A stretch of 64,000 nucleotides of DNA from NCBI GenBank assembly GCA_963718745.1, contig OY970370.1:1547566-1611565 (forward strand), written 5' to 3'. Both the position numbers and the translations under genes were made by a program. Source of the stretch: Candidatus Fermentibacterota bacterium. Lineage in GTDB: Bacteria; Fermentibacterota; Fermentibacteria; Fermentibacterales; Fermentibacteraceae. Each line of letters begins with the position of its first letter. Position 1 is the first letter of the stretch. The notes under the pieces are model-generated. The model saw only the letters and a program-made list of their open reading frames with translations, was not told where the DNA came from and searched no databases. Of this stretch, positions 3,722-38,888 are shown in pieces.

Positions 3722-4438
3722 TCAGTAACGAGTTTCCGATCTGAATGTTGATAGGAATTCTTCGAGTTCCATTCCGTATGTGCTCTCGAAAACATCATCA
3801 GGGTCGCTCCAGAACGTGTGCCGGGTCATGTACTCCTGGAATCTCTCGCGTCCGAACCTCTCGATGAGATTATTCACTATGAGGGCGAATTCGCAGTAGA
3901 TGAACGGCTGCCTGTACTCGACATCCAGTCCTACCTCATCCTCGGAATCGGTGCCAAAAACTGCAGGCGGCATCCAGTTGCCCGCCGCGATAAGCCTCAC
4001 GGTCTCCGCCGAATCCGGATAGAAGGTGGCGCCCATCTGGTCTGCACCGAGTGTCGCCATCCCCTCCATGAGCCATCGCGGATACCGGAGAGCGGCGATC
4101 AGATCCATGTGCTGATAGAGGAGAGTGTGCGACAGCTCGTGCGTGAGGTAGGTCTCCAGCGATATCAGGCCTTCCGCGTCCTCCCTGGAAGCCCATGGCG
4201 AGACCACGATGGAGCCTGAAGGGAAGGCGCAGAGCCTGGCTCTCGAGGGGGAGCGCCGGGAATAGGTCCCATCGTCGCCGAAGAGGAAGACCCTCGGCCT
4301 GGAGCTGAAATCGAGCCCGTGGAACTCCTCCACTCGCCGGGGGAGTGAGTCGATCCAGCCGGTGTCGCCGAAGTCGAATCCCTTCTGGGTGTAGACCGCA
4401 ACGCAGGGATAGTCGGTCCTGTCGAAGCCCACGATCAC
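3722..4438 (-). CDS. putative zinc metallopeptidase (HExxH), 5' end likely frame-disrupted
   Basis: ORF 3722..4438 (GTG); HELSH zinc-binding motif; the upstream in-frame stretch reads like a signal peptide but has no start, while an ATG with RBS lies at 4520 in another frame. Confidence 0.5.
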   Translation of the reverse strand: MIVGFDRTDYPCVAVYTQKGFDFGDTGWIDSLPRRVEEFHGLDFSSRPRVFLFGDDGTYSRRSPSRARLCAFPSGSIVVSPWASREDAEGLISLETYLTHELSHTLLYQHMDLIAALRYPRWLMEGMATLGADQMGATFYPDSAETVRLIAAGNWMPPAVFGTDSEDEVGLDVEYRQPFIYCEFALIVNNLIERFGRERFQEYMTRHTFWSDPDDVFESTYGMELEEFLSTFRSETRY

Positions 4439-4958
4439 CGGGGAGTAGGGGAAGAGCCTGCCCCAGACGAGAGCGTACGAGAGCCCGGGAGCAAGCAGGA
4501 GATTCCTGCTGCTGCCGCATGTGCGGTTCTCCAGCTCTTCCGGCTCTTGTCATCTCCATGCCCCCTGCGTCGTGCGAACCCGGTCTATCCGGCATCGCCG
4601 GGCTGTTCCTGGCGGGAAGGGAGGATTCAACTGTCCGCCGGCACGCCACGGCGGACAGTCCCTTCCGGGACCAGGACTATAGATTCCGGGACGGATGCGA
4701 GCAATAATGACCGGAATGGCGGATCACGCTTCTGGCCGGGAGAGTTGAGCGGTAAGGTTATAGCCTTCTGTGCCCCGGTGCCGCCCTTGCCTGGGAATAT
4801 CCGCACAGCAGCCGTTTGTGAACATCGCTCTGAAGAGCGCCTTGATGGCGGCTGCCATCATGAAGGAATCTTACTTGTCAGCGTGGGGCGGTTGGTGACC
4901 GCAGCGGCAGACAGGGAACAGGGCAGAGATAGTGCCCTGTCCCCCCAGAGAAGCGAAT

Positions 4959-5783
4959 CTAGCGGACTATCGCGAAAGTCGCCGAATCGAACGACTGCCC
5001 TGTGGATGCCGTGACCACATACGCTCCTGACGGGAGAGGGTTCCCGTCGTTGCCGCGGCCGTCGAAGTCGAAGTAAACCTCTTCTGTCGATGTCTGCACA
5101 CCATCGAGAGTTCGCACGCACCGACCCATGATGTCGATTACTTCGGCACCGACAGCTTCGGCGTCATCTCCACGGTAGCGGAAGACGAACGGGCCGGAGA
5201 TTGAGACCCTGGTTACACTCAGCCCGGCTTCGGAAGCAGGAAGAGGAATCCCGGCTGTAATCTCCGAGCCGTCGGAAAGGTTTTCAGGGAAGAACGGTCT
5301 GTACATGACGTCGTAGTTGGTGTGTCCGCTGCTGAGATAGGCCGCCCCTGCAGCGAAGAAATGCCCCGCCTCCGTGACACAGCCACCCATCTGATCGCAG
5401 GATGGGGCAGTTAATCCGAAGGAGCCCGTGTCGGCGCTTCCGACAAAGGAGTGAGTGAGTTCGAAGTCGTTGTTCAGCCTTCCGATCCAAATATACCATT
5501 CGTCTCCATCTCTTACCATGCCGGAGACCATGTAGCCCGCGGAGAACAGCTCGAAATCGTAGACTCTGATCCCATCGAAGGGATTCGGGGGATAGACTTT
5601 GTAATCCCTAAGGAAGTTCAGCGACTCGTCGAGGATAGTAATCGAGATGTATGCATCTGTATGCTGGAAGATGCCCTCCATGCTCTGAGTGGTGATCGGA
5701 TTGCCCATCACGACATAGCCGGGGGCTCCCGGAAGGGGAAATGATGTTCGATCTCCTGATACTGCTGACGATTGCGGCTTCAC
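4959..5783 (-). CDS. protein with T9SS/FlgD-like C-terminal sorting domain, possibly N-terminally truncated
   Basis: C-terminus EVYFDFDGRGNDGNPLPSGAYVVTASTGQSFDSATFAIVR resembles the Por-secretion C-terminal domain; no signal peptide, and the 5' end overlaps the divergent gene at 5741. Confidence 0.45.
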   Translation of the reverse strand: MKPQSSAVSGDRTSFPLPGAPGYVVMGNPITTQSMEGIFQHTDAYISITILDESLNFLRDYKVYPPNPFDGIRVYDFELFSAGYMVSGMVRDGDEWYIWIGRLNNDFELTHSFVGSADTGSFGLTAPSCDQMGGCVTEAGHFFAAGAAYLSSGHTNYDVMYRPFFPENLSDGSEITAGIPLPASEAGLSVTRVSISGPFVFRYRGDDAEAVGAEVIDIMGRCVRTLDGVQTSTEEVYFDFDGRGNDGNPLPSGAYVVTASTGQSFDSATFAIVR

Positions 5784-7396: not shown

Positions 7397-8449
7397 CTAC
7401 CGCCAGCTCGACGGATCCGTCGGGATGGTCATCCTGACCAGGAAGACCTCTTCCGAACCGGGGCTTGTTCCTGCCGCCAGATACTCATCTGCTGAAGGAT
7501 CGGCGCAGGCGATTCCCGTGAGCCAGTTCGAAGACTGCAGTCCGATCACGGACTCACCGAGCAGGTTGCCCTCGCCGTCGAGCACGACGAGCAGGGGGAG
7601 CATCTCCTCGCAGGTGGAAAGACCGCATCCTGCGACGACCGGGATGGAGGTCGAGCCCACCGCAAGCAGAAGCCCGGAATCGGTCTCGACTGTCTGAAAG
7701 GCATTCGCTGTGCCGAGGCCGAACCCGGTCGTCTTCCAGACAGGTTCCCCGGTGTCCCCGTCCAGGATGCAGACGTACCACGCCCCGGGCGTGGTGAACC
7801 ACTCCGAGACGCTGCCCGACAGGAGCACATCACCGGAACGGGTCAGGGTCATCGACTCGACGCCGGGTCCGGTCTCGCCGTCGAATTCCGGAAGGTCCAG
7901 CAGATAGTAGTTGCTGAGCTGGACGGAGAAGATGACCTCCCCGGACGGCGAGAGACGGAGGACGCGCGTCTCGTTTCTGTTGCAGTCGGGGCGGATGCTC
8001 ACGAGGTATCCGTCCGCCTCAGAGCCGGCCACGACAGGGCAGTTGTCGAACTCGTCGGTTCCATCCAGGGTGCATGTCCACAGCGTGTCTCCCGCCGTTG
8101 TGCAGGCAACGAGGACCTGGTTCCCCGCATAACCCCCGGGCTGGAACACGGTGATCACAGGATCTCCGGACACGATCACAGGCTCGCAGGAAGCCGGGTC
8201 TCCACAGGAGCCTTCAACCAGACCCCATGCGTCATAGTCGTTCACCACAGGCAGCGAATAGATGTACCTGCTCGCGACGAGACCCGTGATCCCGAAGGCT
8301 CCGGCCTCGAAGCCTTCCATGTGGACCGGGTACGTCCCGTACGAGGTGGCGGGTATTCCGCAGGGCAGCTCGGACAGGATTTCAACGGGTGCATTGTCGT
8401 ACGACGCGGGAAGCAGCAGGGCGAGAAGCAGCAGCATCAAGGACACCAC
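7397..8449 (-). CDS. hypothetical secreted protein
   Basis: ORF with signal peptide MVSLMLLLLALLLPASY; Cys/Gly/Thr-rich. Confidence 0.6.
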   Translation of the reverse strand: MVSLMLLLLALLLPASYDNAPVEILSELPCGIPATSYGTYPVHMEGFEAGAFGITGLVASRYIYSLPVVNDYDAWGLVEGSCGDPASCEPVIVSGDPVITVFQPGGYAGNQVLVACTTAGDTLWTCTLDGTDEFDNCPVVAGSEADGYLVSIRPDCNRNETRVLRLSPSGEVIFSVQLSNYYLLDLPEFDGETGPGVESMTLTRSGDVLLSGSVSEWFTTPGAWYVCILDGDTGEPVWKTTGFGLGTANAFQTVETDSGLLLAVGSTSIPVVAGCGLSTCEEMLPLLVVLDGEGNLLGESVIGLQSSNWLTGIACADPSADEYLAAGTSPGSEEVFLVRMTIPTDPSSWR

Positions 8450-12596: not shown

Positions 12597-15188
12597 TCAT
12601 CTGCCTGATCTCGTCCGCCTTGCTCCGGGTCGACTCGTCGAACTCCCCTCCGAGGATCTCCGTCGCCCTTTCGAGGGACTCCCGGCCTCCGCCCGGCGTC
12701 CAGTGAAGGCGGCAACCTGGGCGAGCACGAGCAGGGCGTGACCCTGCATGCTGGCATGCTCGATGGACTCCGCGATCCGCAGGCATTCCCCGGCCAGCCG
12801 TCCAGCCCTTTCAGGATCCTCCCGGCACAGCAGGTCGGCGATGCCCAGGAGCGACAGCTCCTCGGCCCTCCTGTCGCCCACTTCCCTCGCGATTTCGAGG
12901 GATTCCTCCAGGCAGGCGAGCGCGCGGGCGTCCTCGCCGGCGTGGATGAGCATGAAGCCCATGCTGCCGAGGGTCCGCATCTGCATGATGATGTCTCCCT
13001 GGATCCTGGCGTGGTCGAGAGCCTTCCCGTAGTGCTCCACGCCCTTCATCAGGTTGCCGCCGATCGCCTCGAGCGTGGCCAGGTTGGTGAGCGCGACTGC
13101 TATCTGCCTGTGATCCCCGATCTCCTCGACCGTGGCCAGCATCCTCTCGAAGAATCTCCTGGCTGCATCGTGCCGGCCCCCCTGCGCCTCCATGACTCCC
13201 AGCGTGCCGAGTATCCTGGGCTCGAGGTCCTTCTCCCCGGAGCCCGCTGCCAGGGTCAGGGCCTCTTCGAGCAGCAGCCGGGAATCCTCCGCCCGGCCGG
13301 CAAGCTGCAGGAAGGTCGCCATCCTCTCCATCACGTTCGCCAGCAACCCGGACCTATCGGGCTGCAGATCCCGTCCCCACCTCGACCTGAAGATCTCGAG
13401 CTTCTCGCCGAAGACCTGCAGGGCGAGGCCTGTTGTGCTCCGCACGATGAAGATCTGGCTCAGCGCGATCAGGAAGCCGCGCGTCTCGGCTGGCGGCCAC
13501 AGCCTCGCGGCCCGGTCCCACGCCTGGAGGAGGTTGGGCAGAGCCGTCTCGATCTGCTTCAGGACCTCCGCCGAACCGGCCCGGTTGATGTCCTGTCTGG
13601 CCTGCTCCAGCCAGGCGGCGAAGTGGCGGGCATGCCTCTCCGACAGTTCCTCCCGCCTGCCGGGGTCGTTCGACAGCTTTTCCGCGGCATATGCGTGGAC
13701 GATGGGGTGCATGAGGAACCTGCCGGGGGAGGGGCAGTTGAGCAGCGACCTGTCGAGGAGGCTCCGAAGGTTGCGAAGACCGCAGTCCGCCACCGCCGAG
13801 GCAGCCGGAGGATCGAACTCCCCCGCGAAGATCGACAGTCCGGATAGAGCACGCCTGCCTTCCTCGTCGAGCAGTTTCCAGGAATACTCGAAGACGGCCT
13901 CGAGCCCCCGATGCCTTCCCGGCATGTCCAGGGGAGCGGAGTCGAGCAGCTCGAAGCTGCGCGCCAGCTCGGAGACGATATCCGCCGGCGGGACCATCCG
14001 GACCCAGGAGGAGGCGAGCTCGATGCCCAGCGGGCTGCCCTCCAGCATTCTGCAGATGGAGGCTATTGCAGGCCTGTCCGCCCGCGAGGCATCCCAGCCG
14101 GGGTCCGCCCTGCGGGCCGATGCGAGGAAGAGATCCGACGCGTCGCAGCCCTCGAGGTCGGATCCGTCCGGCGCCGGAAGGTCCATCCCGCGCAGCACGA
14201 AAACCCTCTCCTCGCGGATGTCGAGCCTGTGACGGGAGGTGACCAGCAGCTTCAGCCCCGGGCTCCTGGAGAGCAGGCGCGAGAGGACCGGCGAGTCCTG
14301 CGACAGATGCTCGAAGTTGTCGGCGACGACGAGCACTTCTCTGTCGGCGAGGAACGAGGCCAGCTGGTCCTCCTCGGAGGAGGTTCCGGAGAACCTGAGG
14401 GACATTGCAGAGGCCACAGCGGCGGGGATCATGGAAGCGGAGGGGATGTCCTCGAGGCGCACGAAGAAGGCTCCGTGCCTGAAGCCAGTTATGGCGCGAG
14501 CAGCAGACTGCAGCGCCAGGCGGCTCTTACCCGTGCCGCCGGGGGCGAGTATCGTGAGCAGCCTGCAGCTTGGGTCCTCGAGCTGTGCGCAGATCTCGTC
14601 CAGCTCTCTCGCGCGGCCGACGAATGGCGTCGGCTGTGGCGGTAGGTTCTGAGGGCGGCTGGAGACCGTCCGCAGGGCGGGGAACTCCGATCTGAGTGAC
14701 GGGTGGGTCAGGATGTGGATCTGCTGAGGCTCCATCAGGTCGCGAAGAATGTGCAGACCGGCATCCAGGAGCGATGCTCCGGCGGGAAGCACTTCGGTTC
14801 GACCTGCCTCATCGTTGGCCAGGACCTGCCCGCCCCATGCCGCCGAAAGCATGCGGGCGGCGCCGTTCATGACAGGGCCGAAGTAGTCGTCGCCCCTTCG
14901 CTCGGCCTCCCCTGCGAACGCGCACATCCTGACGTTGAGTCCCCCGACCCCGGACCAGTCCCCGGCCTGCAGGGCGACCTGGGCATGGATGGCGCATTCC
15001 AGGGCCCGGCCATTGTCGAAGACGGCGATGATGCCGTCACCCGTGTGCTTGACGATCCTGCCGCCGTGGAGGGCTGCCGATTCCCGCAGGATGGAGTCGT
15101 GGCGGCAGAGGGCGGCCGACATGGCGTCGGGTGCGCTCTCCCACCTGGCGGTCGAGCCTTCGATGTCGGTGAACAGGAACGTGGGCAT
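12597..15188 (-). CDS. adenylate/guanylate cyclase domain protein with AAA-type P-loop ATPase and TPR repeats
   Basis: N-terminal class III cyclase motifs (FLFTDIEGSTARWE, HGGRIVKHTGDGIIAVF); P-loop APGGTGKSRLA; alpha-helical repeat C-terminus. Confidence 0.8.
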   Translation of the reverse strand: MPTFLFTDIEGSTARWESAPDAMSAALCRHDSILRESAALHGGRIVKHTGDGIIAVFDNGRALECAIHAQVALQAGDWSGVGGLNVRMCAFAGEAERRGDDYFGPVMNGAARMLSAAWGGQVLANDEAGRTEVLPAGASLLDAGLHILRDLMEPQQIHILTHPSLRSEFPALRTVSSRPQNLPPQPTPFVGRARELDEICAQLEDPSCRLLTILAPGGTGKSRLALQSAARAITGFRHGAFFVRLEDIPSASMIPAAVASAMSLRFSGTSSEEDQLASFLADREVLVVADNFEHLSQDSPVLSRLLSRSPGLKLLVTSRHRLDIREERVFVLRGMDLPAPDGSDLEGCDASDLFLASARRADPGWDASRADRPAIASICRMLEGSPLGIELASSWVRMVPPADIVSELARSFELLDSAPLDMPGRHRGLEAVFEYSWKLLDEEGRRALSGLSIFAGEFDPPAASAVADCGLRNLRSLLDRSLLNCPSPGRFLMHPIVHAYAAEKLSNDPGRREELSERHARHFAAWLEQARQDINRAGSAEVLKQIETALPNLLQAWDRAARLWPPAETRGFLIALSQIFIVRSTTGLALQVFGEKLEIFRSRWGRDLQPDRSGLLANVMERMATFLQLAGRAEDSRLLLEEALTLAAGSGEKDLEPRILGTLGVMEAQGGRHDAARRFFERMLATVEEIGDHRQIAVALTNLATLEAIGGNLMKGVEHYGKALDHARIQGDIIMQMRTLGSMGFMLIHAGEDARALACLEESLEIAREVGDRRAEELSLLGIADLLCREDPERAGRLAGECLRIAESIEHASMQGHALLVLAQVAAFTGRRAEAGSPSKGRRRSSEGSSTSRPGARRTRSGR

Positions 15189-16263: not shown

Positions 16264-16667
16264 GCGCGTCCTCGGGCCGACCCCGTAGCACCTCGCCCCA
16301 CGCGTCAGCTGAAAAAGTACAGGGATGCGGGGTCCGCTCCGGCGGGCCCCGCATCCATCTGTGAAACGGTTGCTGGAAGCTCACCAGCCTGATCCATCGA
16401 GGTCTTCCGACCATCAATCCAGCCTGCTTGTCGCCAACTGCCCCCCGGGGCAACGCATTCCCCGCTGATCAAAGAGCGAGTATTCGATGGGAGCACCATG
16501 TCGGACGGACTCTGTGTCCCGAGTTGCTGGTTTCCTCCTGTCTGACTCCCCCGGATGTCTTCATAATCATGCTGGAAACCGATTCGGGCGCGTGGACGGC
16601 CAGGATGGTCATCCTGAGAAATGCGGCACCATGCACACGGTGCCCGAGTCCCCGGAGGGGAGGAACG

Positions 16668-18578
16668 ATGAGATACCTTCTGCTGCCGGTCATCTGCGCG
16701 CTGCCGTGCTTCTCCGCGGAGCTCCTGTTCCGCAGCCAGGAAGCAATGCCGGACGCCGAGATCCTCGCTTCGGATGCGAGCTCGGTTACCTTGTGCTTCA
16801 ACCTCCCCGCCCTCACCGGATCCGATGCTTTGGTCGACGGTTTCGGCACCGGCACCTGCCTGCGCGTGCCGGGCTGGGGAATGCTGGCCGAAGCGGGCTG
16901 CCCCGACCTGCCGGTGCTCAGGAAGCTCGTCATGGTCCCGGACATCGGGGGGGTGAGCCTCGAGGTGATGGAGGAGACCACCGCGAGCCTGGGTGTGTTC
17001 ACGATACCGCCATTCCAGCATCCACCCCTCAGATCCGGTGAGACTCAGCCGTTCGAGCAGGACCCGGCGATCTATGGTTCGGAAGGTCCTTTTCCTTCCG
17101 AGTGTGCACTGCTGGAAGGCGTTCACGTGCTGAGGGACCTCAGGGTTGCGACGGTCAGGTTCAATCCCGTGAGGTACGACCCACGGACGGGTGAGGTCAC
17201 TCTGGTGACTTCGGCCACTGTCAGGCTGACGTTCGGGGGATCAGGGGAGAACGAGTTGTCGCGAAACTTCACGGGCACCACCCCCGGTTTCCTCCCGGTG
17301 TACGAGGAGGTCCTGGGGTTCGAACCCTCGGGTCCCTTCCTCGACGGCTGCTACCTGTTCATCGGCACCGAGGAGAGCCTCGAAGCGATCGAGGCGCTGA
17401 TCGACTGGAAGAGACAGCGGGGCTACAGGGTGGAACTGGCACAGGTGCCGAACATGGGAACGACAGCCGAAGAGGTCGACGACTGGATCGAGCTTGCCTA
17501 CGCGATCTGGTCGTGCCCGCCCGAGTGGATCCTCATCGCAGGCGGCGAAGACCTCGTGCCGGTGCCGCTGTACGAGGGATTCGCATCCGACAACGTCTAC
17601 GGCGTCATCGGCACAGGGACCAGCGTGCCATCGATACATGTCGGGAGGATCACCGGGTCCATGGAGGACCTCCAGTACCAGGCCTGGAAGATCCGCAGCC
17701 ACGAGGCCGACCCGTACGAGCCGGCAGGCGTGAACTGGCTGCAGAGGACCGTGGTCATCGGCTCGAGCGACGGGCTGGATCCGCTGCACTCCTGGGAGCA
17801 TGCTCAGATCTTCATGCAGCACGGTTTGTCCGTGGATTACTACTGCGACAGCCCCGCGTACGGCGGGGCGCCTCCGGACAAGGCGGCCATCGCGGCGAAC
17901 ATCGACGAGGGAAGGACGATCGTAGACTACATCGGCCACGGGTGGAGCGAAGGCTGGGGCACCTCGGGGTTCTCCTCGACCGACGTGGCAGCCCTTTCGA
18001 ACGGCCGCATGCTCCCCTGGGTGAACTCGATAGCCTGCAGCAACGCGGAGTTCATGTACGGGTACTGCTTCGGAGAAGCCTGGATGACCGAGGGAGACAT
18101 GGTCGACCCCAGGGGCGGGCTCGGTTTCATGGGGGCGACGACGGGCAGCCCCTTCGGCCCGACGGATTCACTGGCGGAGTACACGTGGCGCGGCTACTTC
18201 GAACTCGATATCCATCACATGGGAGCGGCAGTCGACTACGGGAAGCTGAAGGTCGAGGAGTTCTACGGCGGCGGCGGCTGGGCAAACAACATGATGCACA
18301 TGGTGTTCGGATGCCCCGAGGTCGACGTCTATGGCGACACTTCCCCCATCCCCGTCCTGGCATCTGACCACAGCGGGTACATCTGGAGCGGACCGTGGCC
18401 GGTATACGTCACCTCCGAGGGCGATGGTCCCGTCGAAAACGCGATGGTGGGCGTGGTTCAGGGCGACGAACTGCTCGGAGCCGGATACACCGACAGCAAT
18501 GGCTTCCTGCAGCTGGACATCCCGGAACTGCCCTACGGATCTTCCGATGGAGGCCACCATCACTGTCACTGCTCATAA
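16668..18578 (+). CDS. peptidase C25 (gingipain-like) family protein, catalytic region
   Basis: Start MRYLLLPVICALPCFSA (signal) with GGAGGGGAGG RBS; conserved His/Cys regions (IDYIGHGWSEGWG, VNSIACSNAEF); reading frame ends abruptly at 18578. Confidence 0.8.
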   Translation: MRYLLLPVICALPCFSAELLFRSQEAMPDAEILASDASSVTLCFNLPALTGSDALVDGFGTGTCLRVPGWGMLAEAGCPDLPVLRKLVMVPDIGGVSLEVMEETTASLGVFTIPPFQHPPLRSGETQPFEQDPAIYGSEGPFPSECALLEGVHVLRDLRVATVRFNPVRYDPRTGEVTLVTSATVRLTFGGSGENELSRNFTGTTPGFLPVYEEVLGFEPSGPFLDGCYLFIGTEESLEAIEALIDWKRQRGYRVELAQVPNMGTTAEEVDDWIELAYAIWSCPPEWILIAGGEDLVPVPLYEGFASDNVYGVIGTGTSVPSIHVGRITGSMEDLQYQAWKIRSHEADPYEPAGVNWLQRTVVIGSSDGLDPLHSWEHAQIFMQHGLSVDYYCDSPAYGGAPPDKAAIAANIDEGRTIVDYIGHGWSEGWGTSGFSSTDVAALSNGRMLPWVNSIACSNAEFMYGYCFGEAWMTEGDMVDPRGGLGFMGATTGSPFGPTDSLAEYTWRGYFELDIHHMGAAVDYGKLKVEEFYGGGGWANNMMHMVFGCPEVDVYGDTSPIPVLASDHSGYIWSGPWPVYVTSEGDGPVENAMVGVVQGDELLGAGYTDSNGFLQLDIPELPYGSSDGGHHHCHCS

Positions 18579-18924
18579 CTGCAGGGCGTACACGGCTTCA
18601 CTGGACCCGGCTCCGGTGGGCTGGGAGGAAGGCGGCAGCGCGTGTCTCTTCCTCGACCCGGCCACCCCCTCTCCGTTCTCGTCCCTCACCTCGATAACCT
18701 TCGGCCTGCCGTCGGAATCCCCCTGCAATCTGTCCGTCTACGATGTCTCCGGAAGGCTGGTGCGGACGATCATCGACGCCAGCCTGCCCGGCGGCGGTCA
18801 TGCGGTCGTCTGGGACGGTACGACGGGCTCGGGTGCGAGATGCCCGGACGGAGTCTACTTCATTCGCCTGAGCATTCCGGAGGACGGGCTCACCCGGAGA
18901 GTAGTCCGGCTGGGCGGGGATTGA
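18546..18924 (+). CDS. T9SS C-terminal sorting domain, probable 3' continuation of the C25 peptidase in the +1 frame
   Basis: Frame +1 encodes ...CNLSVYDVSGRLVRTIIDASLPGGGHAVVWDGTTGSGARCPDGVYFIRLSIPEDGLTRRVVRLGGD, a classic Por-secretion C-terminal domain; implies a frameshift near 18530-18550. Confidence 0.5.
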
Positions 18925-21934: not shown

Positions 21935-23755
21935 CTACTCCACCACCACGACGCGTCTCGCGGTCTCGAACTCCCCGGCCTGCATCCTTACGAAGTAGAC
22001 GCCCGGGGGATGCTCGCCCAGTCCAACCTGCGAATAGCCGGGCTGGTATTCGATCGAACCCGTCGATTCCGCAACCCTGCCCGCGATGTCCAGAACGGTC
22101 AGAGTCACCATGGAAGGCTCGGGAATGCCGATCGTGACGAGCAGGGGCCCGGAGACGGGATTGGACACGAAGGGCATCAGCTCGAAACCGCCGGGCATCT
22201 CCGGCCCCTCCGTGCCGAGCGGGTTCCAGGAGACCGTTACGTCGAGCAGAGCGGGGCTGGCGCCGGGATCGTCCGTCGTCATCACGGACCTGTACTGGAA
22301 GTAGTTCGCTCCCTCAGGAAGCACGCCCGCGAGACTGCACGGGTCATCGAGAATGGCCGACCACGCCCCCATCTCGTCGGAATCGTCCGAAGCGCGCACC
22401 TGGAAGGAAATGTCGGTCTGGGAGGGAGAGTCTTCAGTCCATGTCAGACCTCCCCAGCCCGGATCGCCCTGCAGGTATAGGATGCTGGATTCCAGGACCG
22501 CCTCGTTCACATGGATGTCCCACCAGCGGAAGAAGTGCAGGTCCGGCTCGAAGCTGGTCCCCAGGATGTCCATCCAGCCGTCGCCGTCCACGTCACCCGG
22601 GATGATGCAGTCGGCAGTGTTGTACTCCCCGATGTCGCAGACCGTGTGCTCCTCCCAGTCCGTCCCCAGTCCGTCGGAGTTCTCGATCCAGATGTACTGT
22701 CCGCCAAGCCCCGTTGTGACCAGGATGTCGCTGTCTCCGTCCCGGTCGAGATCGCCGGACCCGAGGCCCCAGCAGCAATCGGAATAGGCTGCAACTACGT
22801 GCTTGGTCCAGTCCGAACCCGTGCCGCTCAGGTTCTCCCACCACGAGACGGCGTCCGAGTCAGTACCTGAACCGAGGACGTCGAGATCCCCGTCTCCGTC
22901 GAAATCGGCCGCATGGACGGAGAACGAGCTGTTGTAGCCGTCATCTATGGCGGCCATGGTCCAGGTCGTCCCGAGACCGTCGGTGTTCTCGAGCCAGAAC
23001 ACGCCGTACTCGGCTGAACCTGCGGCAATGATGTCCAGATCTCCGTCTCCGTCCAGATCGCCGGGATGCACACCGTGGTAGGAACTGCTGAGCCCCGTAT
23101 CGATCTCATGTTCGAGCCAGTCGGAGCCGTCCCCCTCGACGTTCTCCCACCAGTACCAGTACAGGCCGAAGACGTCTGCGCAGACGATGTCGATGTCTCC
23201 ATCCCCGTCGAAGTCCCCCGTGCACGGGGTCACTGGCATCTCTGGAGCGGCGCTGATCGAACAACCGATCCATAGAGTCCCCTGGCCGTCCACGTTCTCG
23301 AACCAGGAGACCAGGTCCTGGGCTGCGACGAAGTCGGTGTCGCCGTCGCCGTCGATGTCGCTCGCGCAGATGTATCCGCCGGTTGCAGCTGCTATAAAGT
23401 GAATCGTCCAGTCGGTGCCCGTGCCGTCGTTGTTCTCCCACCAGCAGACGGTGGAGGAGCTGCTCGCAACGACGTCCAGGTCCCCGTCGCCGTCCATGTC
23501 GGCAGCATCCAGGTATTCGGGCTCGAAGATGTCGTCGATGGTGTTCTCGTACTCTCCAGGGAGGATCCCGACCTGCCCGGCGGGAGACGACCACGACGCT
23601 CCGGCGCATTCGTAGAATTCTCCACCCCATGCCGTTACCGGCCCCTGAGTCCCGGGGCCGCCGGCCCAGTCGGTCTGGCTTTCGCTGTCGGCATGGCAGA
23701 CGGAAACTGTAATCAGAAGGGCTATGAGGAGGAAGAGTCGCTGCATCCGGACCAC
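21935..23755 (-). CDS. FG-GAP/VCBS repeat protein with T9SS C-terminal sorting domain
   Basis: Signal peptide; repeated DxDGDGDxD calcium-binding-like motifs; C-terminus TLTVLDIAGRVAE...PGVYFVRMQAGEFETARRVVVVE. Confidence 0.8.
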   Translation of the reverse strand: MVRMQRLFLLIALLITVSVCHADSESQTDWAGGPGTQGPVTAWGGEFYECAGASWSSPAGQVGILPGEYENTIDDIFEPEYLDAADMDGDGDLDVVASSSSTVCWWENNDGTGTDWTIHFIAAATGGYICASDIDGDGDTDFVAAQDLVSWFENVDGQGTLWIGCSISAAPEMPVTPCTGDFDGDGDIDIVCADVFGLYWYWWENVEGDGSDWLEHEIDTGLSSSYHGVHPGDLDGDGDLDIIAAGSAEYGVFWLENTDGLGTTWTMAAIDDGYNSSFSVHAADFDGDGDLDVLGSGTDSDAVSWWENLSGTGSDWTKHVVAAYSDCCWGLGSGDLDRDGDSDILVTTGLGGQYIWIENSDGLGTDWEEHTVCDIGEYNTADCIIPGDVDGDGWMDILGTSFEPDLHFFRWWDIHVNEAVLESSILYLQGDPGWGGLTWTEDSPSQTDISFQVRASDDSDEMGAWSAILDDPCSLAGVLPEGANYFQYRSVMTTDDPGASPALLDVTVSWNPLGTEGPEMPGGFELMPFVSNPVSGPLLVTIGIPEPSMVTLTVLDIAGRVAESTGSIEYQPGYSQVGLGEHPPGVYFVRMQAGEFETARRVVVVE

Positions 23756-24053
23756 CCCCGTTTAAATTTTCACTGCATATCTGATCTCGCACGACATCAG
23801 ACCTGCGTCAAGCCCAACTTCCAGATCGCTTTGACTTCAGGTCCCAGCTCTGGTCGAAGGTTTCGCAGCAGTTTCTTTCGCTAGGCGGAAGACAGGAGTC
23901 ATTCACCTTGAATCCTTTTCATGACCGAGCAAGCTCTGGTTACTGCGGTGCAGTCCTCTGGAGGCACCGACCCTCCCGATCTGCCGGAAACCTGTAAATG
24001 TCCTGCCCGGGAAGCATATCCATCGTTTTCTACGATCCGATGAAGGGTAGGCA

Positions 24054-24082
24054 TTGACTCTACGTACGGCATTGCGTACGAT
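24054..24082 (+). promoter_or_regulatory. sigma70-like promoter TTGACT-N17-TACGAT with CGTACG-N6-CGTACG operator palindromes
   Basis: About 25 nt upstream of the antitoxin start; paired short palindromes in a toxin-antitoxin promoter are the expected autoregulation architecture. Confidence 0.45.
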
Positions 24083-24105
24083 ACAGAAGATAGAAAGGGG
24101 AGCGT

Positions 24106-24348
24106 ATGTCAGCGTTGAGCGCCACTGATGCAAGAGCCCGGCTGTACCGCCTCATCGACGAGGCGGCCGAGACTCATGAACCGATCCTGATAACCGGGAA
24201 GCGGAGTAACGCCATTCTCCTCTCGGAGGAGGACTGGCGTTCGATCCAGGAAACCCTGTTCCTGCTCTCGGTCCCCGGCATGCGCGAGAGCATCGTCGAG
24301 GGCATGAAGACACCGGTCGAGAAGTGCAGCGAGAAGCCCGGCTGGTGA
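24106..24348 (+). CDS. yefM: type II antitoxin, Phd/YefM family
   Basis: 80 aa; MSALSATDARARLYRLIDEAAETHEPILITGKRSNAILLSEEDWRSIQETLFLLSVPGM matches YefM; AAAGGGGA RBS. Confidence 0.85.
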   Translation: MSALSATDARARLYRLIDEAAETHEPILITGKRSNAILLSEEDWRSIQETLFLLSVPGMRESIVEGMKTPVEKCSEKPGW

Positions 24349-24608
24349 CCTGGCGCCTGGTCTACACTGCGCAGGCCCGGAAGGACGCGAAGAAGATCCA
24401 GGCAGCCAGCCTCCGGGAAAAGACGGAAGCTCTCCTCGAACTGATCGCGAAGGATCCTTGCGCCGCCCCTCCTCCCTTCGAGAGGCTCCTCGGTGACCTG
24501 AAGGGCGCGATATCCCGCAGGATCAACATCCAGCACAGACTTGTCTACCAGGTTCTCGAAGCAGAGAAGACCATCAAGGTCCTCAGGATATGGACGCACT
24601 TCGAGTAG
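24324..24608 (+). CDS. yoeB: type II toxin, YoeB/Txe family
   Basis: RLVYTAQARKDAKKI...RRINIQHRLVYQV...IWTHFE matches YoeB; the likely start is the GTG at 24345 overlapping the antitoxin stop. Confidence 0.85.
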   Translation: MQREARLVTWRLVYTAQARKDAKKIQAASLREKTEALLELIAKDPCAAPPPFERLLGDLKGAISRRINIQHRLVYQVLEAEKTIKVLRIWTHFE

Positions 24609-24705
24609 ACAGAATCAGCCCTCTGGAAGCATGACCGCCATGCCTTCTTGCCTGCCTGGACCCTCTTCCGTATCGTCACTTCTGGCGTATGCGAGAGGGG
24701 GGCGT

Positions 24706-25182
24706 ATGCGGATCGTCGCCGAAGTTCTCGGGCTAGTCACGATCTTCACTTTGATGCTCTCAGGATGCGGCAGTTATGAGGACGAAACCGTCATCTTCAC
24801 CAAGGTCCTCCCGGCTGACGTTCAGCAGCTCATGGACAACGGGTATCTCGACAGCGGGGGTGCAAACCCCATCCTTTATCCTGTCGAGGAAATGTGGGAA
24901 GACTTCTACTTCGCAGAAACCCCCGAGATGCTGGACTCCCTGTTCCAGGAATATCCTCCAGTTCTGGACAGCCTCTTCCCGGAAGGCGGCTCACTTCTGA
25001 TCCTGGACCTCCACACAGAAATTGAGGATGAAGTTCTAGGCTACTCTATGGAAGCCAGTTCTGACACAGTGCGGATATGTGTTGAGATAAGATACCGAGA
25101 TGTCGGAAGCCCTTATCCAGGGATTCGCGAGTGGGTTTTCCCGATGGGAGTTGTTCTTGATCCGGAGACTCCCGCTGAGTAG
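24706..25182 (+). CDS. hypothetical lipoprotein
   Basis: Internal start MRIVAEVLGLVTIFTLMLSGCGS with GAGAGGGGGG RBS. Confidence 0.55.
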   Translation: MRIVAEVLGLVTIFTLMLSGCGSYEDETVIFTKVLPADVQQLMDNGYLDSGGANPILYPVEEMWEDFYFAETPEMLDSLFQEYPPVLDSLFPEGGSLLILDLHTEIEDEVLGYSMEASSDTVRICVEIRYRDVGSPYPGIREWVFPMGVVLDPETPAE

Positions 25183-25307
25183 ACTGACGCCGACCAGCTG
25201 ACCTCGCGGACTTCCACACGGATGCAGTAGACGATCTCGCCTAAACCCCGTAATCTCAAAAGGCTTCAACATCCTGGGGCTGCTCAACAACCCGAAGAAG
25301 ACGGATG

Positions 25308-25640
25308 TGTCCCACGGGGATACGCAGCCCCCCGTGGACCGGTCGCGCGAACGAATCGAGCTGAATGGCAGTTGTGAGCGCGACAAGGCATCATCACGGT
25401 CGTTTCACGGAAACGACGATGCTGTGCTTATCTACTGGTGGTGATGATGCCTTTGCCACTTCCCGCAGGGAAGTGGCGGTCCTGGTCCTTTGTGGATGGA
25501 ACACCCTGATGGCCCAACTCGTGAAGATTGCGGCGTGGAGCAGAGTTTCGTAAGGTCTGCTCAGAATGTCCTCTACCCGCTCTGCTGCAAATAAGCCTCT
25601 CCTGGCCGGAGAAGTAATAGCCATGTCGGATTGGAGAATG
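25308..25640. repeat. mosaic intergenic repeat, copy A (includes a hairpin variant of the tRNA-Glu 3'-end motif)
   Basis: About 270 bp aligns with 27396..27650 at high identity; its 3' part matches copy D. Confidence 0.65.
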
Positions 25641-25794
25641 GCCTGAACAATGTGGATGGGATTGCAGGCCAGCTCGATTCCGGATGATCAATTCCCTCGA
25701 TGTTGACGACACTCACATCTGAACTTGCTGGCATGTCCTAGTCTAGGCATAGATAGAATACACTCGGCTTCGGTAATGGGCTGGAGGTGGAACG

Positions 25795-27285
25795 GTGTTG
25801 GCGCTCCTTTTACTTGCAGCGACCGCGAGTCCACCCGAGATCCTGTGGGCTGCCTGGTCCCCTGGCGGGATAGTTGATGTAGAGTGCGCCGGCTTCGTGA
25901 ATGGCGACTCCACCGAAGATGTCTTTGCCGCGTCAGATGAAGCCTCCGGGCATGGCATCATGTGCCTGGACGGGGCTACAGGTGGAATCATCTGGCTCAA
26001 CGACTCTCTTCCGGGAATCACTGGCACGGGTTGCCTCCGAGCTATCAGAGACGTGAATCTTGACGGAGTTCATGATGTTGCGGCAGGTTCATCGGCGAAT
26101 CCTGCGGTGGCTGTCTTCTCTGGAAGCACAGGTGAGATTCTGTGGAGCATTCCCCAGGAGTATCCGGTCTGTTGGATCGAGGCCGCCAATGGTCCTGGTC
26201 CCTCGGACGTCTACGTTCTTGTTAACCGACAGAACTCATACTGGACCAGTTGTGCCGCGCTTGTCGGTCAAACTGGAGCGCAGCAGTGGGCCACGCCTTA
26301 CGTGGCAACCACAGATCTCTGGCTAAGAGCGACTGAAGGTGACATCAACGGTACAGGCTGGTCCGAGTTCGGTATATCGGTTGACAGGGGATCTGTCAGC
26401 GGCGGATGGGCCGACGTGATGGACGGTTCGAATGGCGGCCTGATCCATCGAGAAAACACGATGTATTTCGGATCCATGGACGTATGCGACACGCCCATGC
26501 CGTTGATGGTCATGTCTCACTTCGGAACCTACCCCGTGACATGGGCGTACTCCTTTGTCTCGGGCACTGTAGTATGGCAGAGTTACAACCCGGATCTGGG
26601 TGGCGCCCAGCTCCAGATTCTCCCGAGCATCACCCAGCCTGCCACCCCGGATCGTGAGATCCTCGGATTCGGAAGCAGCAGCCACCTGGTCCTGTTCAGT
26701 TGTGATGAGGAATACACTGACGTTTTTGTTGAATACGTCTTTCCGAGCGCGATCAGGGCGGTTGACTATTTCTGTGAGGCTGCAACGTGGAGGGTTGCCT
26801 TGGTGACCTCGGCCAGATTCCATTGCCCCCTGCTGGACCTTTGGTCCCCACCTTCCACAGAGCCTTCAATCGCCTTGCCTAACGCGGATGCACAGGATCT
26901 TTGCCTGATCGAGTCGGTTCTCTCTCCGACACCACTCGTAGCTGTCGCAATGAAAGCAGCCGGACCAGGTGTCTGCGCGATTCGCACCACATGGCCCGAA
27001 GGCATCGAGGAGGAAAGCACAGCCCCCAATCTGGTCTTGAGCTCCTGTTCGCCTAGTCCTGGGACGGGGGAGTTCAGTCTCACCTGGTCATCCGGCATGG
27101 GGCCGACGGAGATCGGAGTCTATGAGGAATCCGGCAGACTCTGCCTCGATTGCGACCTGGGTCTGATGCCCGAAGGCGAACACTCCACACAGCTCGACCT
27201 GCAGGAAATGCCCTCCGGCTGCTATGTGGTCGTAGTCTCCTGTGGCACAGAGCGGGCCTCCACGAAGCTGGTTGTGCTCAGGTAG
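25795..27285 (+). CDS. secreted repeat protein with T9SS-like C-terminal domain
   Basis: GTG start with GGAGGTGG RBS; signal MLALLLLAATASPP; C-terminus GVYEESGRLCLDCDLG...PSGCYVVVVSCGTERASTKLVVLR. Confidence 0.7.
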   Translation: MLALLLLAATASPPEILWAAWSPGGIVDVECAGFVNGDSTEDVFAASDEASGHGIMCLDGATGGIIWLNDSLPGITGTGCLRAIRDVNLDGVHDVAAGSSANPAVAVFSGSTGEILWSIPQEYPVCWIEAANGPGPSDVYVLVNRQNSYWTSCAALVGQTGAQQWATPYVATTDLWLRATEGDINGTGWSEFGISVDRGSVSGGWADVMDGSNGGLIHRENTMYFGSMDVCDTPMPLMVMSHFGTYPVTWAYSFVSGTVVWQSYNPDLGGAQLQILPSITQPATPDREILGFGSSSHLVLFSCDEEYTDVFVEYVFPSAIRAVDYFCEAATWRVALVTSARFHCPLLDLWSPPSTEPSIALPNADAQDLCLIESVLSPTPLVAVAMKAAGPGVCAIRTTWPEGIEEESTAPNLVLSSCSPSPGTGEFSLTWSSGMGPTEIGVYEESGRLCLDCDLGLMPEGEHSTQLDLQEMPSGCYVVVVSCGTERASTKLVVLR

Positions 27286-27375
27286 GAGAGCCTCCGAAGC
27301 TGCTTCCCGATTCCGTGCTGTAGTGCGTCTGGCTGTCTGTATTAGCGCAAAATATTGCTGTATAACTGATTATAT

Positions 27376-27845: not shown

Positions 27846-28931
27846 CTACTGCAGCTCGAAAATGTAGACCCGGGGCCACGAGCTGGCGAAAGGATTCCAG
27901 GCAAGAATCCCGCGATCTGTGATGCGGAAGATCATCAGCTCGTCGCCGGGGAGGCCACTGACAGCGGAGGTGAACTCCAGCGTGCCATCCGACCTATACA
28001 CGTCGAACTCAGGGTGGAAATAGGAACTGTGGTGCACCCAGACCCTTCCCAGGGAATCCTGGACCTGGATCCCGATCACACCCAGCTCCCTTGGATCAGG
28101 GCGCCAGGCCCCGCCCATGTTGTCACGGTACCGGCGCCAGAGGAGTTCCTCCTCTACTTCCAGAGAATCGCGGAAACCTGGTTCCCGGGGATTTTGAAGA
28201 GTATCCAGGGGGGTACCGTCCTGCGCTAAAACTAGGACACGATTGTTGACGCCAGAGAGGGCCACATATATGTGCCCGTCACTATCTGTAGTTACTGCAG
28301 GCTGTCCGGCATAAAGCTCGTAGAGATCCTCGGGATTGATGCTGATCTGCTGAAGTGAGCTAAAGGTAGTGGTTATCTCTCCGGTGTCGATGCTCCACCG
28401 GGACAAGTCCATAGAAAGCGTGAGATCGCCATTCTGATCCGCAGTGAGATTCCCGGCCCAGCCGAGAGCGGAGCTGTCTGGAAGGATACTCAGCTGATCG
28501 ATGACCGAATTTCCGGGGAGTGTGACGGAACGCACCGTTGCCAAATCAGCTCGGTAGTACACAAATCGTCGAAGGTAGTATTCGTATAGGACGAAGCCTT
28601 CGCCGAATGGCGTTATCCCACCGATGTGATTGTATTCCAAAGGGCCATTGCCCAGATTCTTGACCCGGCTGATGCAGAGACCATCCGGAGAAAACAGACG
28701 CAGATCCTGATACGCCCCGTCCGCAACCAGTATGTTTCCGTCCGGTATGAAGAATGCCCCAGCGACTTTGCCCAGTAAAAGGTTGCTATCTCCGATTTCA
28801 ACTCCGATGGAATCGACAACTCGCAGTTCTCTGTATGTGATCGGATCATCGGTTGCTGGTGTGGGTCCTTTGCAGGCGATAGCCATAAGGATCAATGGCC
28901 CGCCTGAAACAAGGAAATATCCACTTCTCAT
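27846..28931 (-). CDS. hypothetical lipoprotein, beta-propeller-like
   Basis: Start MRSGYFLVSGGPLILMAIACKG (lipobox) with GGAGG RBS; repetitive beta-rich sequence. Confidence 0.65.
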   Translation of the reverse strand: MRSGYFLVSGGPLILMAIACKGPTPATDDPITYRELRVVDSIGVEIGDSNLLLGKVAGAFFIPDGNILVADGAYQDLRLFSPDGLCISRVKNLGNGPLEYNHIGGITPFGEGFVLYEYYLRRFVYYRADLATVRSVTLPGNSVIDQLSILPDSSALGWAGNLTADQNGDLTLSMDLSRWSIDTGEITTTFSSLQQISINPEDLYELYAGQPAVTTDSDGHIYVALSGVNNRVLVLAQDGTPLDTLQNPREPGFRDSLEVEEELLWRRYRDNMGGAWRPDPRELGVIGIQVQDSLGRVWVHHSSYFHPEFDVYRSDGTLEFTSAVSGLPGDELMIFRITDRGILAWNPFASSWPRVYIFELQ

Positions 28932-29149
28932 CCCGCTAATCACCTCCAGTCTGCAATATCATCAGTTTCGCAGCTCTGCCTGTCTAGTTACAGGGATCGA
29001 AGTCCAATCCGGGGAAGGTCAGCATTCCGAGCTTCAGAACCCGGGGACCGTTAATGCGATCCTTCAAGACAAGGACGAGCTGCTTGCACGACCAGGCATC
29101 GTCATGGTCGTTTTAGGAAACGACGGCTCTGAGCTTGTAACCAGTTGGT

Positions 29150-35936: not shown

Positions 35937-37409
35937 CTAGAGGTCATGTCCGCAGTAGGACAGGTTGAAGCTCTTGTTGCACAGGGGGAAGTCCGAGATC
36001 TGCTGCCCGCGGAGCGCGCAGGCCAGCCCGAACCAGTTCCGGAACGAGGGATCCACGACCTTGCAGCGGCTGAAACCCCCGCGGTCGTCCGTGATCAGGA
36101 CATGGCAGATCTCTCCGCGCCAGCCCTCCGCCAGGGAGACCGCCATCCCGTTCCGCGGCAGCGCGCCCGTATCGACATGGACCGGGCCGTCCGGGAGGCT
36201 TCCGAGCTGTTCCAGGATGAATGCGGCCGATCTCTGTACCTCCATCCACCGGACGAGGGCGCGGGCGAAGACGTCACCCGAATCCCAGACCGAGAGCGGG
36301 ATGTGGGACATCCGGTAGATGCCCGAAGGGAAGTCACGGCGCACGTCCTTCTCGAGCCCGCTGGCCCTGGCGGCCGGTCCGGAAAGGCCGATGGACGCCG
36401 CGAGGCCGGCGGGAACGGTCCCGGTGCCCTCGAACCGCGACAGGACGGAAGGGGTCTCCCACAGCAGGCCCACGGCCCCCTCTGCGTCCCGGAGCGCCGT
36501 CCTGAGCCTGTCCGAGAGGTCCCGCGCCGTCTCCCCGTCGATGTCCCGGGCCAGGCCTCCCGGCCGGAGCAGCCCCCGGCCGAACCTGTTGCCGCACATG
36601 CCCGCCGTTATGTTGAGGACATCCCCCCTGATCCTCCCGCAGTACGACATGGTGGGGAGGAAACCGACGTCGCCCGCCATCGCGCCCAGGTCGCCTACGT
36701 GGTTGGCCATCCTCTCCAGCTCGAGCGCCACGCCCCGGAGGACCTGCGCCCTCGCAGGGACGTCCGTTCCGCACAGAGCCTCGAATGCCGAGCAGTACGC
36801 GGTCGCATGGCCGATGGAGGTGTCTCCCGCGATCGTCTCGACGATGCGGAGCCTCCGGTAGTCCGGCCTGCCCTTCAGCGCCTCCTCGACTCCCCTGTGC
36901 TGGTATCCGAGGGCGATCTCGAGGTGATAAACCGTCTCGCCGTGGCACAGGAACCTGAAGTGGCCGGGCTCGATCACGCCCGCGTGCACGGGGCCGACGG
37001 CGACTTCGTGGATCTCCGCGCCCCTTATCCTGAAGAAGTTGTTCGTCTCCGCAGAAGGCGGGCCGGGGGGGTACCTGACCGGTTTCAACCACGGGTGCCC
37101 CCTGAACTCGATCCCGTACCCCTCGGCGGCCTCGCGCTCGAACATCTGCGCCTGCGGGCAGTCGGGCACCAGCGAGTCCATCCCGCCCGAGGGGCGGGTG
37201 GAGAATACCGAGATCTGGCCGGTGCCAGGCTTCGACATCACCGCGTACATCGTCAGGCTGTCCTGGAGCCGGCATGCGAAGAGCGCGGAAATGGCCGCCC
37301 CGCCCTGCACCGAATCCAGAACGCCCTGCCTGAACTCCGCCCTTGTGAGGAGGGGGATCTCGGCGAGCGGCACGGGTCCTCCGCCCTGGAACAGCGCTGT
37401 GCGTGTCAC
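35937..37409 (-). CDS. NuoC/NuoD-fusion large subunit (HycE-like) lacking NiFe-ligating CxxC motifs
   Basis: C-terminal 490 aa of ORF 35937..38888; GTG start overlaps the stop of the upstream gene; NuoC-like (YAVMS...ISVFSTR...FEREAAEGYGIEFRGHP) then NuoD-like domain; the L1 position reads TIAGDTSIGH and the C-terminus is NLSYCGHDL. Confidence 0.8.
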   Translation of the reverse strand: MTRTALFQGGGPVPLAEIPLLTRAEFRQGVLDSVQGGAAISALFACRLQDSLTMYAVMSKPGTGQISVFSTRPSGGMDSLVPDCPQAQMFEREAAEGYGIEFRGHPWLKPVRYPPGPPSAETNNFFRIRGAEIHEVAVGPVHAGVIEPGHFRFLCHGETVYHLEIALGYQHRGVEEALKGRPDYRRLRIVETIAGDTSIGHATAYCSAFEALCGTDVPARAQVLRGVALELERMANHVGDLGAMAGDVGFLPTMSYCGRIRGDVLNITAGMCGNRFGRGLLRPGGLARDIDGETARDLSDRLRTALRDAEGAVGLLWETPSVLSRFEGTGTVPAGLAASIGLSGPAARASGLEKDVRRDFPSGIYRMSHIPLSVWDSGDVFARALVRWMEVQRSAAFILEQLGSLPDGPVHVDTGALPRNGMAVSLAEGWRGEICHVLITDDRGGFSRCKVVDPSFRNWFGLACALRGQQISDFPLCNKSFNLSYCGHDL

Positions 37410-38888
37410 GGCAGCACCTCGATCACGGACGCGGCGGAGGCCAGGGCTTCCCTGAGGAATGGCGGCATCCATATCCCGAGGACGAGCAGGACTATCATGG
37501 GCACTGCGACTAGCAGCAGGTCGGGTAGCGTCGTGACGGCCTTCAGTGCGGGCCGTTCGGGCGGCATCCATGCCATCGGGATGGCGTGCCGGAGGATCCC
37601 GATGAAGGCGATCGAGACGCCGGCGAGGAAGAGGATCGCCACGAACACGGCGCCCGAGTCGAATGCCGTGCGGAGGATCATGAACTCGGTGAGGAAGATC
37701 GCGAACGGGGCTGTCCCCGTCAGGGCGAGGAGCGAAGCCAGCAGGCCCGCGCCCCACACCGGGGCGGACGAGAGGGTGCCGCGGATCCTGCGCATGTCGT
37801 TGGACCCGCTGATCGCGATGAGCCTCCCGGCTGACAGGAATGCGGTGCTCTTGGCAAGGGAGTGGGACAGGGCGTGCAACATCGCCGCGAGGGCTCCCGC
37901 TCCACCGAGACCGGCGCCGAGCGCGATTATCCCGATGTGCTCGAGGCTGGAGTACGCGAGCAGCCGCTTCAGATCCCTCTGCACCACGATGAAGGCCGCC
38001 GCTGTGAGTATCGAGGCGAGACCCGCCGCGATCAGGATGCTCCTGCCCCAGCCATGGCCGCCTGTCGCCGCCTCCACTATCGGGAGGCAGCGGAAGATGC
38101 AGTACAGGGCTGCGTTCAGGAGGAAGCCCGAGAACACGGCCGAAACGGGGGCGGGCGCCTGGCTGTGCGCGTCGGGCAGCCAGTTGTGCATCGGCGCGAG
38201 CCCCGCTTTCGTCCCGTAGCCCACGACCATGAAGATGAAACCCGCCTTGAGGAGGGTGACGTCCAGGCCGGATGCTGATGCGGCCAGGCTCGTCCAGAGA
38301 AGGGACTCGGTCCCGCGAAGCGAAGTAGGACCCGCCGAAGCCGCGAAGAGGAGGGTGCCTGTGAAGGCCAGGGCGACACCCACGGAGCACATCAGCAGAT
38401 ACTTCCACATGGCCTCGAGGGAGCCCGGCGTGGTGTGAACGCATATCAGGAAAGCGCTCAGGAGCGTCGTCGCCTCTATCCCGACCCACATCACCCCGAG
38501 GTTGTTGGACAGGAGAACGACGAGCATCGCGAAGAGCGAGCCGAACCAGAGCCCCCCGAATCGGCGGGCGGACCGGATGTCGAAAGAGCCGGCGGCGAGT
38601 CTCGTTCTCGAAGTAGCCGGGGGCCTGCAGCGCAGCGAGCGTGAATACGACGCCCATTATCAGGAGATGGAAGGCCGAGAGTGCGTCCAGCCTCAGCCAG
38701 CCGCCCGGTACCGTGACCGGGCCGCCTCCCAGCACAACGAATGCCGCCGCGCCCATGAGGATGCACGTGAAGACCGTGCCCAGGGCGCACAGGCGGAGCG
38801 CCGACCGGGGCGTGCCGGAGAACAGGCTCGCCGCGGCAAGCAGCACGGGAAGGGCCAGCATCGCGGTGATCATCAGGGTCGCCGTCAT
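37406..38888 (-). CDS. HyfF/NuoN-like antiporter-type membrane subunit, frame-disrupted near 38560-38600
   Basis: N-terminal ~96 aa in the frame of ORF 35937..38888 and the remaining 373 aa in ORF 37406..38527; both parts are NuoL/M/N-family TM sequence. Confidence 0.7.

Follow-up and report, generated by a model that had tools for sequence, protein, structure and literature searches.

One surplus nucleotide in a Fermentibacterota C25 peptidase gene: a probable assembly or consensus error weighed against recent mutation

Has a secreted peptidase gene of an uncultured bacterium recently begun to decay, or was it broken when its sequence was assembled? The question arises at positions 16,668 to 18,924 of a 64,000-nucleotide stretch of DNA from Candidatus Fermentibacterota bacterium (contig OY970370.1 of assembly GCA_963718745.1, positions 1,547,566 to 1,611,565; hereafter the window), where a gingipain-like peptidase of family C25 is separated from its C-terminal secretion tail by a shift of reading frame. 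The initial annotation had described the gene as either a recent pseudogene or the product of an assembly indel, and as one of several such cases in the window. We found that three disruptions are indeed present and that orthologues of the gene are unsplit, and the evidence leans towards an error of assembly or consensus.

The frame break in the C25 peptidase gene

The 5' part of the gene occupies frame 3 of the forward strand (16668..18545) and encodes a signal peptide (MRYLLLPVICALPCFSA), the C25 propeptide, the catalytic domain with its GHG and IAC motifs and most of an Ig-like domain. Alignment with orthologues supports the start proposed earlier at 16668, as the signal peptide encoded there matches their N-termini, and we take this ATG as the real start of the gene. 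The open reading frame (ORF) that holds this part, 16428..18578 (+), ends in ...PELPYGSSDGGHHHCHCS or, given more fully, ...LDIPELPYGSSDGGHHHCHCS. Its premature TAA, at 18576..18578 (+), follows the GGHHHCHCS tail of the shifted reading, exactly where the initial annotation had seen it. A second ORF, 18331..18924 (+), overlaps the first with a phase difference of +1 base (interior ...MEATITVTAHNCRAYTASLDPAPVGWEEGG..., terminus ...GVYFIRLSIPEDGLTRRVVRLGGD*) and carries the 3' part of the gene in frame 1 (18547..18924, +), namely the last Ig β-strand (EATITVTAHN), a linker, a C-terminal domain of the FlgD_ig or type IX secretion system (T9SS) type, and the stop codon. The sorting domain that had been placed in the +1 frame from about 18546 is therefore present in that frame, but the last Ig strand and the linker come before it.

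The position of the break was narrowed by several comparisons. Using tblastn, the intact orthologue P0004 (751 aa) mapped with residues 1–626 to 16668–18545 in frame 3 (75% identity) and with residues 627–751 to 18547–18921 in frame 1, leaving base 18546 unassigned and no residue lost or gained. Viterbi decoding of codon usage placed the change of frame at 18534/18535, and the codon-usage signal carries on in the new frame past the shift. Removal of any single base within 18540–18559 restored an ORF of 751 aa, the length of the orthologues P0002 and P0004. Single-base deletions at 18544–18553 yielded GSSMEAT, GSSVEAT, GSSDEAT or GSSDGAT, and each of these variants occurs in some orthologue. 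This zone of the surplus nucleotide (18544..18553, +; TCC-GATG-GAGG, in the context TCC GATG GAGG CC) contains no homopolymer run longer than two bases. The deposited locus is thus one gene that holds exactly one surplus nucleotide within 18544–18553.

Read without correction, the gene gives a 636-aa product that lacks the last Ig strand, the linker and the sorting domain. This exact product (P0001) is on record from a single contig of 2,522,402 bp (NCBI/ENA), and the same contig is the source of a 125-aa protein (P0395, 18547..18921) and of a 373-aa protein (P0393) from a second broken gene, hyfF-like, that is treated below; the deposited annotation accordingly splits genes. The 125-aa protein begins partway through the Ig-like domain and lacks a signal peptide. 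It was called as a separate gene because an ATG (18547) followed by GGAGG (18549–18553) coincides with the shift site.

A search of protein collections with the joined frames returned about 100 full-length relatives of 739–751 aa, found in Fermentibacteria (Hyd24-12), Aegiribacteria and Sabulitectum metagenome-assembled genomes (MAGs). The peptidase is fused to the FlgD_ig tail in nearly all of them, and the closest share 72–74% identity with the window protein. The joined reading crosses the junction without a gap (PYGSSDEATITVTAHNCRAYTASLDPAPVGWEEGG in the window against an orthologue consensus of PYGSSxEATLTVTAHNCRPYTASLDPAPxGxEEG). Unlike the window gene, the intact orthologues (e.g. P0002–P0007, P0015 and P0021, labelled at NCBI as 'T9SS type A sorting domain-containing protein' or 'C25 family cysteine peptidase') are uninterrupted, and the closest measure 749–751 aa. 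Comparison with orthologues had been proposed from the start as a check on the break, and neither the roughly 100 C25 orthologues nor three relatives of the hyfF-like gene proved to be split. The genomes of the relatives carry two to three C25 paralogues each. A scan of GTDB representative genomes found 80 related loci, and the regions flanking the orthologues show no synteny with the window.

The domain content is that of a gingipain. In Pfam, the first ORF matched Propeptide_C25 (54.2 bits, cut-off 22) and Peptidase_C25 (125 bits, cut-off 23; residues 309–628 of the 716-aa ORF), and the second matched FlgD_ig (PF13860; 37.9 bits, cut-off 27). The tail had been called a textbook T9SS domain; this holds in so far as FlgD_ig lies above the Pfam threshold, but the NCBIfam model of the T9SS type A sorting domain (TIGR04183) reached 22.5 bits on the second ORF, 0.5 bit below its cut-off of 23. 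Por_Secre_tail (PF18962) had no match in the window protein and matches some of the orthologues. In the repaired reading the protein runs from the signal peptide at 16668 to a tail domain that stops four residues short of the stop codon at 18922–18924.

A family profile built from 20 members was compared with the PDB. It aligned with gingipain R RgpB over residues 9–431 (4IEF_B/1CVR, E = 2e-46; catalytic and Ig-like domains), with the RgpB prodomain (4IEF_A, E = 1.6e-23) and also with the C-terminal region of PorU (6ZA2). His424 and Cys457 are invariant in the 20 members and align with tGHGS and DVACVN of RgpB, the GHG and A-C motifs of its catalytic residues His211 and Cys244. The break directly precedes the last Ig-like β-strand, which reads LTLTVVGYNK in RgpB and EATITVTAHN in the +1 frame of the window. 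The window gene and RgpB of Porphyromonas gingivalis (MEROPS C25; 1CVR, 4IEF) therefore share the order of propeptide, catalytic domain with a His/Cys dyad, Ig-like domain and sorting domain. This likeness is at the profile level only, and the host belongs to another phylum (Fermentibacteria), the tail scores higher as FlgD_ig than as Por_Secre_tail, and the gene is broken before the last Ig strand.

Two more proteins of the window end in FlgD_ig-type tails, one of unknown function (4959..5783, −) and one with FG-GAP repeats (21935..23755, −). Their presence fits the tail as a general sorting signal and suggests that it is common in this organism. The gene is an ordinary secreted C25 (gingipain-type) cysteine peptidase of a well-populated and already annotated family, and the biological weight of the locus is small, with dozens of intact copies of this standard enzyme annotated in the lineage.

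Companion lesions and the case for an assembly or consensus error

How old the break could be was addressed by comparing conservation on its two sides. The ratio of identity in the C-terminal part to that in the N-terminal part was 0.84–1.04 for the window protein against six orthologues, and 0.83–1.00 among those orthologues themselves. By this ratio test, and by the fact that a one-base repair restores the full ORF, there was neither relaxed constraint nor a second lesion after the break.

The second disruption concerns a hyfF-like gene on the reverse strand (hydrogenase-4 component F, Proton_antipo_M), which had been reported as broken near 38575. We confirmed the lesion and placed it at 38598 (−). 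The N-terminal 97 codons lie at 38888..38598 (−) and the other 397 at 38596..37406 (−), the latter being the part recorded at source as the separate 373-aa protein; the two parts are one base out of phase, and the Viterbi path switches frame at 38598/38599. On either side of base 38598 the gene divides into a 5' part at 38599..38888 (−) and a 3' part at 37406..38597 (−). An intact protein of 493 aa (P0123) is 94% identical to the product, and intact relatives are likewise on record. At the DNA level, blastn against Logan assemblies recovered three relatives, L083 at 93% identity and L084 and L085 at 89.5–89.9%. The surplus base is a T on the coding strand at 38598 (GAG AC[T]C GCC GCC in the window against GAG ACC GCC GCC in L083); it is absent from all three relatives and lies outside any homopolymer. 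No other net frame-breaking indel occurs over 6.3 kb of the hyf operon, and the neighbouring genes (662, 306 and 214 aa) are as long as in L084. With an out-of-frame C25 part as well conserved as in intact genes, and a hyfF-like gene still 94% identical in protein and 93% in DNA, these lesions are either very young or not real.

A nearby run of six G (38551–38556) was considered as the seat of a homopolymer error in the hyfF-like gene and discarded, as the relatives put the surplus base at 38598. Separately, an ORF of 983 aa at 35937–38888 (−) is a chimera. It joins the 5' end of the hyfF-like gene, about 1.2 kb of the same gene read out of frame and the next gene downstream, which shares the frame by chance. 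This downstream member, at roughly 35937–37410, resembles a hydrogenase large-subunit gene.

The third case is an HExxH metallopeptidase-like gene with a broken 5' end (3722..4558, −), in line with the disruption that had been suspected near 4500. The segment 3722..4438 encodes a HELSH motif and has no in-frame start upstream of GTG 4438, the only one available, yet similarity to the homologues already begins about 22 residues upstream of it. All homologues start with a K/R-rich stretch, and a transmembrane segment of some 20 residues comes next. ATG 4558 and ATG 4520 sit in another frame than the metallopeptidase, and the open stretch of frame B begins no earlier than 4549. From the sequence, two repairs may be proposed. 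A single +1 event near 4505 would restore the gene; alternatively, reading the N-terminus in the third frame (KSRKSWRTAHAAAAGISCLLPG) would come nearer to that of the homologues and would need two one-base deletions, at about 4548 and at CCCGGG around 4492.

A further comparison came from the contig of 2,522,402 bp. Outside the window it carries a second C25 paralogue, P0053 (658 aa), which is 54% identical to the window gene and 81% identical to an intact protein of 748 aa (P0011). Its homology ends after ...LTIPSLPSPTE, and the remaining tail reads LGHDHGHIPQQ.... When this tail was back-translated and read one base later, it gave WAT(T/I)TATYHN...; of 33 positions, 27 were compatible with P0011, where about six would be expected, and the offset was zero. 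P0053 therefore also holds one surplus base just before the xATxTxTxHN strand, in the same alignment column as the window gene to within one codon. The DNA around the two breaks differs (GAT G GAG GCC ACC ATC in the window, GAR Y TGG GCC ACG AYC for P0053), which disfavours both gene conversion and a shared repeat as the link between them. That chance mutations should independently have put a surplus base in the same column of two paralogues is very unlikely, and the coincidence points to a technical cause specific to the site. The ORF downstream of P0053 was sought with the last 134 residues of P0011, and nothing was found; among P0092, P0087 and P0028, whose C-termini are intact, we found no third genome broken at this C25 site.

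A precedent in the same family documents that assembly software can break a pair of paralogues at one and the same position. Two truncated C25 paralogues on one contig from Mono Lake sediment (P0094 and P0095; JGI MLSed_10000052) both stop after LALYQFR(GY). Their breaks are deletions of 7 and 14 bp at the edge of about 95 nt that are identical in both copies (L081 and L082, each at 7400–7680). In the NCBI MAG of the Mono Lake population (Ca. Aegiribacteria MLS_C; L020, LQBI01000024) the gene is intact, and it equals one of the copies at 2400 of 2400 aligned positions except for the 14 bp that it retains. The double break of the Mono Lake contig is clearly an assembly artefact.

We lean towards the view that the extra base of the C25 gene is a site-specific error of assembly or consensus, of a technical cause that we infer, and that it is most likely absent from the DNA of the organism. 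This is favoured because the same assembly also holds the one-base surplus in the hyfF-like gene, the 5' damage in the metallopeptidase gene and the same-site shift in the paralogue. An artefact in the broad sense, with editing of the finished assembly counted in, we regard as likely. The source assembly appears to be a long-read one, as suggested by a closed contig of 2.5 Mb from an uncultured lineage. Frameshifts caused by indels are a documented weakness of long-read assemblies and MAGs, with errors that cluster in homopolymers (Sereika et al, 2022; PMC9262707). The window resembles the cases of that study in that one-base indels split conserved genes of a highly contiguous MAG, several per 64 kb, and differs from them in that two of its sites (18544–18553 and 38598) lie outside homopolymers.

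A consensus drawn from mixed strains could produce such lesions by keeping both alleles of a polymorphism as successive bases. GTG and ATG would then be merged into GATG in the C25 gene, ACT and ACC into ACTC in the hyfF-like gene (synonymous Thr codons, of which the relative has ACC), and GAG and GAC into GAG-C-TGG in the paralogue P0053. At the affected C25 residue four orthologues carry Val and two carry Met, which fits GATG as a sum of GTG and ATG. If the error lies in the consensus, the C25 protein would be made at full length and exported like its orthologues.

Several points weigh against this explanation. Homopolymers are the classical place of consensus indels in Nanopore and PacBio data, and neither of the two resolved sites, in the C25 gene and in the hyfF-like gene, lies in a homopolymer of three or more bases. 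As the two C25 paralogues share no identical DNA at the site, the repeat-boundary mechanism of the Mono Lake contig is not directly transferable. The essential genes gltX, glnS and mnmA in the window are intact, with full-length domain coverage in these and other genes, so that the error rate is not extreme. The merging of polymorphic alleles is itself no more than what we infer from the local sequences. Finally, if the mutation were real and very recent, the sequence would be expected to look the same in all respects except the coincidence between the paralogues.

For users of the data the rate of disruption matters more than the enzyme. Codon-usage Viterbi decoding delimited 51 coding segments in the 64 kb, three of which are disrupted, or roughly one gene-splitting lesion per 20 kb; extrapolated to the genome, this would correspond to roughly a hundred split genes. 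Both C25 peptidases and a hydrogenase subunit are among them, and predictions of metabolism or of the secretome from the deposited annotation need a read-level check first.

Mutation, editing and recoding as alternatives

The strongest competitor takes the extra base as genuine, the result of a frameshift that arose very recently in the population, and the C25, hyfF-like and metallopeptidase genes as young pseudogenes, indicating some gene decay. We consider this possible, though on balance unlikely. The lesion is there in the deposited sequence, whose annotation splits the genes accordingly, and sites outside homopolymers suit mutation as well as error. Loss of one C25 gene would be tolerable in a family of two to three copies per genome, and frameshifted pseudogenes occur at the level of a few percent in real bacterial genomes. 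The disrupted fraction, 3 of 51, is nevertheless high for a free-living genome of 2.5 Mb, the C25 gene has suffered no further lesion and its constraint beyond the break is not relaxed, and apart from its one surplus base the hyf operon is perfectly intact. Moreover, independent hits at the same column of paralogues that are 54% identical are very improbable, and their sequences are too different for gene conversion to have spread one lesion to both. If the mutation were real, the 636-aa product without its last Ig strand and sorting domain would probably misfold and could not cross the outer membrane; T9SS cargo that lacks the C-terminal domain fails at this step.

It is improbable that the lesions arose after assembly, through protein-guided or mapping-based polishing or frameshift correction that acted at equivalent positions of the paralogues. 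An editor guided by protein alignments, or reads mapped to the wrong copy, would give exactly the coincidence in one column, and the Mono Lake contig provides a precedent for assembly software that breaks two paralogues at one site. This account leaves the hyfF-like gene without an explanation that involves a paralogue, and it is a sub-case of the assembly error rather than a separate biological reading.

The remaining proposal, that the shift is decoded by programmed +1 frameshifting or by a one-base bypass at a site common to both C25 paralogues, is highly improbable. Genuine recoding where the Ig-like domain meets the secretion tail would supply a truncated, periplasmic and non-secreted form next to the full-length secreted enzyme, and would do so without a classical slippery sequence. 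The same +1 shift in the same column of two paralogues of one genome, the fully conserved coding sequence downstream and a GGAGG element resembling a Shine-Dalgarno (SD) sequence at 18549–18553 all agree with it, though of these the coincidence between the paralogues alone speaks for recoding. In the sequence TCT TCC GAT GGA GGC, however, none of the codons TCC, GAT and GGA re-pairs in the +1 frame, the site itself offers neither a stop nor an evident hungry codon, with the 0-frame stop nine codons downstream, and the GGAGG lies across the site and not ahead of it. The stretch 18530–18650 (121 nt), which spans the site and the sequence after it, folds no better than shuffled sequences (z = −0.81). 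The shift is missing from all of the roughly 100 orthologues, even the closest (72–74% identity), and only the paralogue of the same assembly shares it, while the +1 lesion of the hyfF-like gene sits in an unrelated context. The +1 direction and the nearby SD-like GGAGG recall the programmed frameshifting of prfB, from which the locus differs by the lack of a slippery codon and of an in-frame stop at the site, by the wrong SD spacing and by the absence of the shift from orthologues. The break shared by the two paralogues is a caution that artefacts of assembly or polishing can be specific to a site and so pass for a conserved recoding signal.

Further observations in the window

The remaining same-strand switches of the Viterbi path (1741, 9261, 45415–45684, 46960–47235, 51898–52020 and 58507–60742) were inspected, and all are ordinary gene boundaries. 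A motif common to the lesion sites (GGCCAC or CGA-N5-GCC) was dropped, being too weakly supported and too common in the window. Of the rRNAs and other conserved RNAs that might have served as an independent gauge of errors, the window offered three tRNAs only.

The G+C content of the window is about 64%. The 6 kb at 23737–29838 stand apart at about 57%, against 62–68% elsewhere, and carry no coding signal in the codon model; the ORFs 24541..25182, 25795..27285 and 27846..28943 within them had no match in Pfam. This region ends at a tRNA-Glu gene (29655–29730) and may represent an island that was inserted there. Adjoining each other at 29767–33032 (−) are gltX-like and glnS-like genes for class I aminoacyl-tRNA synthetases, which overlap by four bases (31290–31293).

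Two further proteins have unusual domain coverage. In a HydF-like maturase (44104–45417, +), HydF_dimer matches positions 62–95 of the 99 of the profile only (residues 271–304), and about 140 unmatched residues separate this match from the GTPase domain, a stretch that may have diverged or may contain a local frame error that is compensated. A STAND/TPR protein of 862 aa (12597–15188, −) has a weak and partial N-terminal match to Guanylate_cyc (positions 10–70 of 183 of the profile), and its cyclase domain looks truncated or degenerate.

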